From Escherichia coli (GTDB taxonomy: Bacteria; Pseudomonadota; Gammaproteobacteria; Enterobacterales; Enterobacteriaceae): 64,000 nt of DNA. The stretch lies in assembly GCF_016903815.1 (NCBI RefSeq), contig NZ_CP069973.1, one strand, 5' to 3'. The notes under the pieces were generated by a model. The model was given only the letters and a program-made list of their open reading frames with translations. It was not told the origin of the DNA and ran no database searches. The position numbers and the translations under genes are program-made. Positions 42,094 through 42,115 of this stretch are shown here, piece after piece; within the stretch, counting starts at the first letter, position 1, and every line of letters starts with the position of its first letter.

Positions 42094-42115
42094 CTTAATC
42101 AAATGATTGATTAAG
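42094..42115. promoter_or_regulatory. candidate TetR-type operator palindrome upstream of cecR
   Basis: CTTAATCAA-ATGA-TTGATTAAG, 9-bp perfect inverted arms 14 bp upstream of the cecR start. Confidence 0.35.

Follow-up and report, generated by a model that had tools for sequence, protein, structure and literature searches.

A conserved palindrome at the predicted cecR promoter is the probable operator of the TetR-family repressor CecR in Escherichia coli and other Enterobacteriaceae

The operators of TetR-type repressors differ in size and occupancy: tetO, the site of TetR, is 15 bp long and is bound by one dimer, and IR1, the site of QacR, is 28 bp long and is bound by two. RutR and other members of subfamily D bind palindromic boxes, that of RutR being TTGACCA-N2-TGGTCAA, and RutR has many targets. 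CecR (YbiH) has been assigned to the same subfamily D (PMC12998191). The closest structurally characterised relatives of CecR, after its Salmonella orthologue (PDB 1t33), are E. coli RutR, PhlH and HlyIIR, all of subfamily D, and relatives in the PDB (4x1e and 3loc) matched it with E values of about 1e-6 over the helix-turn-helix. However, the RutR box is unrelated in sequence to the CecR core described below, and CecR is reported to have a single target (PMC5934670; PMC8249747). The palindrome studied here shares with tetO and IR1 its nature as an AT-rich dyad beside the regulator gene, its predicted location over the promoter or start of an efflux operon and its reported release by drugs (PMC12998191). 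It differs in that its core is 20 bp long and in most genera contains nested repeats, and in that cecR shares a transcription unit with its targets instead of facing away from them.

The binding of CecR has been described before. Genomic SELEX identified the spacer between cecR and rhlE as its single target (PMC5934670; PMC8249747), and, according to PMC6237786, in vivo binding measured by ChIP-exo agreed with SELEX. The study of Yamanaka 2016 (Microbiology 162:1253), as summarised in PMC12998191, located the site in this spacer and reported that CecR controls the cecR operon negatively and, in reporter assays, rhlE positively. A cecR knockout overexpressed the five genes of the CecR i-modulon, with precision and recall both equal to 1 (PMC6892915). 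Antibiotics bind CecR, with affinities given in PMC12998191, and CCCP-evolved lines of E. coli W3110 are reported in a preprint to have acquired mutations both within cecR and between cecR and rhlE (bioRxiv 10.1101/392977). According to the literature, the EMSA and footprint of CecR on the spacer have already been done. The K-12 site described by Yamanaka 2016 (as summarised in PMC12998191) shares with ours the gene, the spacer and the palindrome, and no difference is expected. The palindrome is almost certainly the already published CecR binding site and not a new one. Among the papers searched for the half-site sequences and for CecR plus "palindromic", none prints the site. One quoted literature passage was at odds with the 4-nt centre of the palindrome.

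The window, that is, the whole 64-kb stretch of E. coli DNA that was analysed, carries the following genes at this locus:

41409-42080, minus strand: cecR (ybiH), encoding a TetR-family repressor of 223 aa (RefSeq annotation, NCBIfam and PDB match)
36439-41406, minus strand: ybhG (hlyD)-ybhF-ybhS-ybhR, encoding a membrane-fusion protein and ABC exporter, transcribed with cecR (annotation, gene spacing and NCBIfam NF002939 for YbhG)
42309-43673, plus strand: rhlE, an RNA helicase gene transcribed divergently, on which CecR reportedly has a positive effect (annotation; the effect is taken from the literature)

The product of cecR matched the NCBIfam equivalog NF008587 with 415 bits (cutoff 365) and PDB entry 9i1x with an E value of 2e-147. 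It is a TetR-family regulator with an N-terminal helix-turn-helix (PDB 9i1x, 1t33). Downstream of cecR, ybhG (hlyD), ybhF, ybhS and ybhR follow on the same strand with gaps of at most 10 nt or overlaps, which agrees with the initial annotation, where cecR had been placed at the head of a ybhG-ybhFSR operon. Around cecR, the window matched E. coli strain 7/2 at 100% identity; of 5426 complete E. coli genomes, 5423 contained the cecR region. Two out of 5427 cecR-region matches lay on records classed as plasmids, and a few genomes carried two copies.

Beyond rhlE, the window contained a two-gene cassette (43830-44551, plus strand) located before dinG, where K-12 instead has ybiA on the opposite strand. 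The first cassette gene encodes a 146-aa protein with a weak match to RelB antitoxins and a ParC-like match at its N-terminus, both below the curated cut-offs, and the second a 93-aa RelE/StbE toxin. The dinG gene itself (44722-46873, plus strand) was split into two overlapping ORFs of 363 and 381 aa; RefSeq annotates it as frameshifted (a pseudogene) in the identical strain 7/2, and it is intact in K-12. Farther away, between ybhL and ybhN (31826-32943, plus strand), we found an IS200C-family transposase gene (tnpA) and a hypothetical ORF of 129 aa.

The palindrome had initially been annotated as 9-bp perfect arms separated by ATGA and as a candidate CecR operator. The sequence read off the window was as claimed (CTTAATCAA at 42094-42102, ATGA at 42103-42106 and TTGATTAAG at 42107-42115); its extent had to be corrected in two respects, since the perfect arms are 10 bp long and the conserved core is shorter, with an 8+4+8 layout:

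42093-42116, no strand assigned: full perfect inverted repeat of this strain, with 10-bp arms and a 4-nt centre, enclosing 42094-42115
42095-42114, no strand assigned: conserved 20-bp CecR operator core TTAATCAA-ATGA-TTGATTAA, present in 80/80 orthologous loci and identical in K-12 MG1655

The repeat finder placed the 10-bp arms, TCTTAATCAA and TTGATTAAGA, at 42093-42102 and 42107-42116, respectively, with 4 nt between them. The palindrome lies within the 228-bp cecR-rhlE spacer, 13 nt upstream of the annotated cecR ATG, so that its placement just upstream of a TetR-family gene held. An in-frame ATG was also present at 42092, only 1 nt from the palindrome. Because it is not conserved in other genera, the annotated start of cecR was retained.

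We then asked how unusual such a palindrome is. The pattern was found once in the 64-kb window when up to 3 mismatches were allowed, against an expectation of 0.02 from shuffled sequences. As a class, nonetheless, perfect inverted repeats (arms of at least 9 bp and spacers of at most 10 nt) were not rare, with 14 in the window versus 2.7 ± 1.6 in Markov-1 random sequence, and the chance that one of them falls in the 228-bp cecR-rhlE spacer was about 0.01. The palindrome on its own is therefore weak evidence, and it is its position and conservation that carry weight.

Three other perfect repeats of the window are recorded here in their own right. The gap between bioD and uvrB (24309-24333) contained a perfect 9-bp inverted repeat, GTTATCCAC-N7-GTGGATAAC, whose arms resemble the DnaA box TTATCCACA; DnaA is known to bind upstream of uvrB. 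The perfect palindrome TCTGTATGA-G-TCATACAGA (13219-13237), in the 75 bp that separate ybhH from ybhI and close to ybhD, which encodes a LysR-type regulator, could be a regulator site. Finally, a perfect 18-bp palindrome with no spacer, ATGGTTATGCATAACCAT, was located at 60597-60614, just downstream of rhtA and about 270 bp upstream of dps.

In order to follow the palindrome across Enterobacteriaceae, one scan of species-representative genomes was used, which yielded 80 CecR loci encoding proteins 72-99% identical to CecR. The genera represented were Escherichia, Citrobacter, Salmonella, Kluyvera, Enterobacter, Klebsiella, Raoultella and Kosakonia, among others, and these 80 loci together with the window made up the 81 sequences compared. 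All 80 loci carried exactly one TTAATCAA-N4-TTGATTAA core, located at the same place upstream of cecR. Fourteen of the 16 arm positions of the core were invariant, and the other two differed in one locus each. The abstract of Yamanaka 2016 reportedly mentions a "complete palindromic sequence", AATTAGTT-AACTAATT, whose complement reads TTAATCAA-TTGATTAA. The centre of the core was TCGA in 70 of the 81 sequences, TCAT in 7 (Escherichia and one other) and TCGT in 4 (Kluyvera). With TCGA the 20 bp form a perfect palindrome, while the centre found in Escherichia is degenerate. Dyad symmetry was thus as for operators of the TetR family (about 15-30 bp), with 10-bp arms in this strain and a perfectly palindromic core in 70/81 sequences. 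A symmetric TCGA centre is what the recognition of double-stranded DNA by a dimer would predict. Information content came close to its maximum in the 20-bp core and in the -35 and -10 hexamers described below, and was near zero between and outside them. The outer two arm positions were not conserved across genera, and since the ninth was complementary in only 31/81 sequences, we delimited the conserved operator to 42095-42114.

The protein presented a parallel pattern. Residues 11-60 of CecR, which comprise the helix-turn-helix, are its most conserved part, with a mean identity of 0.90 versus 0.78-0.81 elsewhere. Judged from this comparison, the strong conservation of the helix-turn-helix would match an unchanging DNA target. 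Within E. coli, the site was kept at 95% identity or more over 61 bp in all 5423 genomes with a match (of 5426). The spacer of K-12 MG1655 was 99% identical to that of the window; its four differing positions all fell outside the operator and the predicted hexamers, and the K-12 counterpart of the palindrome (NC_000913.3, 830657-830678) was identical base for base.

As for the promoter to which the operator belongs, a standard sigma-70 scan of the cecR-rhlE spacer (16-18 bp between hexamers) found no promoter. A looser scan with 15-19 bp between hexamers gave the following candidates:

42116-42121, minus strand: predicted cecR -10 hexamer CATAAT, first among the sigma-70-like candidates of the spacer and separated from the core by 1 nt in every locus
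42137-42142, minus strand: predicted cecR -35 hexamer TGGACA, with a 15-bp spacer to the -10; TGGACA at this fixed distance in 72/81 sequences
42155-42163, minus strand: alternative extended -10-like element TGCTAAAAT (looser scan), largely confined to E. coli
42206-42214, plus strand: predicted rhlE extended -10 TGCTACACT (looser scan), in 57/81 sequences

The TGGACA/CATAAT pair, with 10 of 12 matches, was the best in the spacer, and the standard scan had missed it because its 15-bp spacing is unusual. The -10 hexamer was CATAAT in 49/81 sequences and CATAAA, CATACT, CATAGT or CATATT in a further 26. The predicted cecR promoter is proposed on the strength of this conservation. The alternative element TGCTAAAAT was absent from the other Escherichia, from Citrobacter and from the remaining genera compared. 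If used, it could provide a second start farther upstream, and transcription from there would meet the operator as a roadblock after about 35-55 nt. By eye, TGGACA...TTGCA in Citrobacter was considered as a sigma-54-like promoter and rejected, as the GG-to-GC spacing was wrong and the second element was not conserved. On the rhlE side, the block GGGATAATTTATGCG (42176-42190, plus strand) lay over the -35 region of the predicted rhlE promoter and recurred, by eye, in GGGATAAT- or ATTTTATGCG-like forms in Escherichia, Citrobacter, Salmonella, Kluyvera, Enterobacter and Kosakonia. This block may be the -35/UP region of rhlE or the site of another factor. The rhlE leader folded no better than its shuffles (z = 0.05).

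The candidate operator put forward at the outset was thereby strengthened by three lines of evidence: a published single site in this spacer, a core present in 80/80 loci and its place right beside a conserved -10 hexamer. We consider it very likely that the palindrome serves the TetR-family repressor CecR as its operator, that CecR bound there occludes the cecR-ybhGFSR promoter and that drug binding releases CecR. The 20-bp dyad begins 1 nt downstream of the conserved -10-like hexamer of cecR-ybhGFSR. Transcription usually starts 5-9 nt from the -10, and because of this standard distance the start would fall inside the left part of the dyad, probably on a minus-strand A at about 42107-42112; the dyad would then span approximately -5 to +16. 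If CecR behaves like TetR and QacR, one homodimer, or perhaps a pair of them, would set the N-terminal helix-turn-helix motifs in both half-sites. CecR bound at this place would block open-complex formation or promoter escape, keeping the expression of cecR and the exporter genes low. With cecR leading the operon, the circuit would be negatively autoregulated. On the basis of the literature, chloramphenicol or cephalosporins would bind the C-terminal tunnel of CecR, which would then leave the DNA and allow expression of the operon. Neither a PDB sequence search nor PMC12998191 yielded a structure of a CecR-DNA complex.

A more specific version of this mechanism can be drawn from the core itself, which in most genera reads TT-(AATC)2-(GATT)2-AA, that is, two nested dyads. 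Two CecR dimers might bind such an operator in the manner of QacR or CgmR, and the change from TCGA to TCAT in Escherichia, by breaking the inner dyad, might have retuned basal expression of the exporter. We put forward this proposal tentatively and regard it as unlikely.

Since CecR is reported to affect both sides of the spacer, the site could instead serve mainly as a direct activator site for rhlE, with repression of cecR being secondary. Positive control of rhlE by CecR in reporter assays (Yamanaka 2016, as summarised in PMC12998191) and the annotation of CecR as a "dual regulator" in K-12 speak for this option. The geometry of the spacer argues against it. In the window, about 105 bp separate the centre of the operator from the predicted rhlE -10 downstream of it, and among genera this distance varied between 81.5 and 212.5 bp without keeping a constant helical phase; in contrast, the operator was 1 nt from the cecR -10 in every locus. 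Moreover, ybhG was found downstream of cecR in 80/80 loci, rhlE was the divergent neighbour in 75, and at least four complete loci, including that of K. pneumoniae, kept the operator without a divergent rhlE. In Klebsiella pneumoniae ATCC 13883, an ORF of 307 aa on the cecR strand (positions 1507-2430 of locus L048) stops 38 nt short of the operator; its translation, inspected by eye, placed it in the LysR-type family. Here rhlE is not the divergent neighbour, and the cecR promoter and operator are intact, with the whole promoter squeezed into about 70 bp. The CecR i-modulon, with its five genes and a precision and recall of 1 (PMC6892915), also argues against a main role at rhlE. Given that the distance to the cecR -10 is fixed, that the distance to rhlE varies and that rhlE is sometimes missing, the operator is tied to the cecR promoter, and we judge a site devoted mainly to rhlE to be very unlikely. 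Because its geometry is variable, the activation of rhlE is probably indirect: the positive effect of CecR is more likely to be indirect or E. coli-specific than to reflect a conserved direct contact.

The palindrome could also act as an RNA hairpin in the 5′ leader of cecR, affecting mRNA stability or translation, rather than as a DNA site. A stem of 10 bp with a loop of 4 nt can indeed form in the transcribed strand (-10.9 kcal/mol, z = -2.9; 4 out of 200 shuffles folded as well), a modest gain over the shuffles, and use of the largely E. coli-confined TGCTAAAAT promoter would put the palindrome in the RNA in full. In contrast, transcription from the conserved predicted promoter would start inside the left arm, and the full stem would be missing from the RNA. 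The pattern of variation is not that of a hairpin either, because the arms never vary and so offer no covariation support, the ninth position is complementary in only 31/81 sequences, and the self-complementary TCGA centre of 70/81 sequences is needed by a dyad DNA site and unneeded by a hairpin loop. An Rfam search returned no family match. Furthermore, a DNA operator accounts for the published binding and knockout data. We hold the hairpin to be extremely improbable. A chance inverted repeat, or the site of another regulator unlinked to CecR, has next to no probability left: random sequence would be expected to hold about 2.7 repeats with perfect 9-bp arms per 64 kb, but the near-invariance of the core across 80 species amid unconserved DNA effectively refutes chance, the core strictly co-occurs with cecR and its promoter and has no second copy in the window even when 3 mismatches are allowed, and the only SELEX target reported for CecR is this very spacer (PMC5934670; PMC8249747).

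Altogether, these results are best accounted for by a CecR operator on the cecR-ybhGFSR promoter. The site and its role are already published and do not constitute new biology; the comparative footprint and the predicted promoter geometry are minor additions. The invariant 20-bp core, its ancestral perfect palindrome and its fixed position relative to the -10 in 80 species could aid annotation, the design of operator mutants and CecR-DNA co-crystals. CecR controls the ABC-type exporter YbhGFSR, which is linked to chloramphenicol, cephalosporin, tetracycline and CCCP sensitivity, and the operator is the switch for this minor intrinsic-resistance determinant, which is core to Escherichia and Salmonella.
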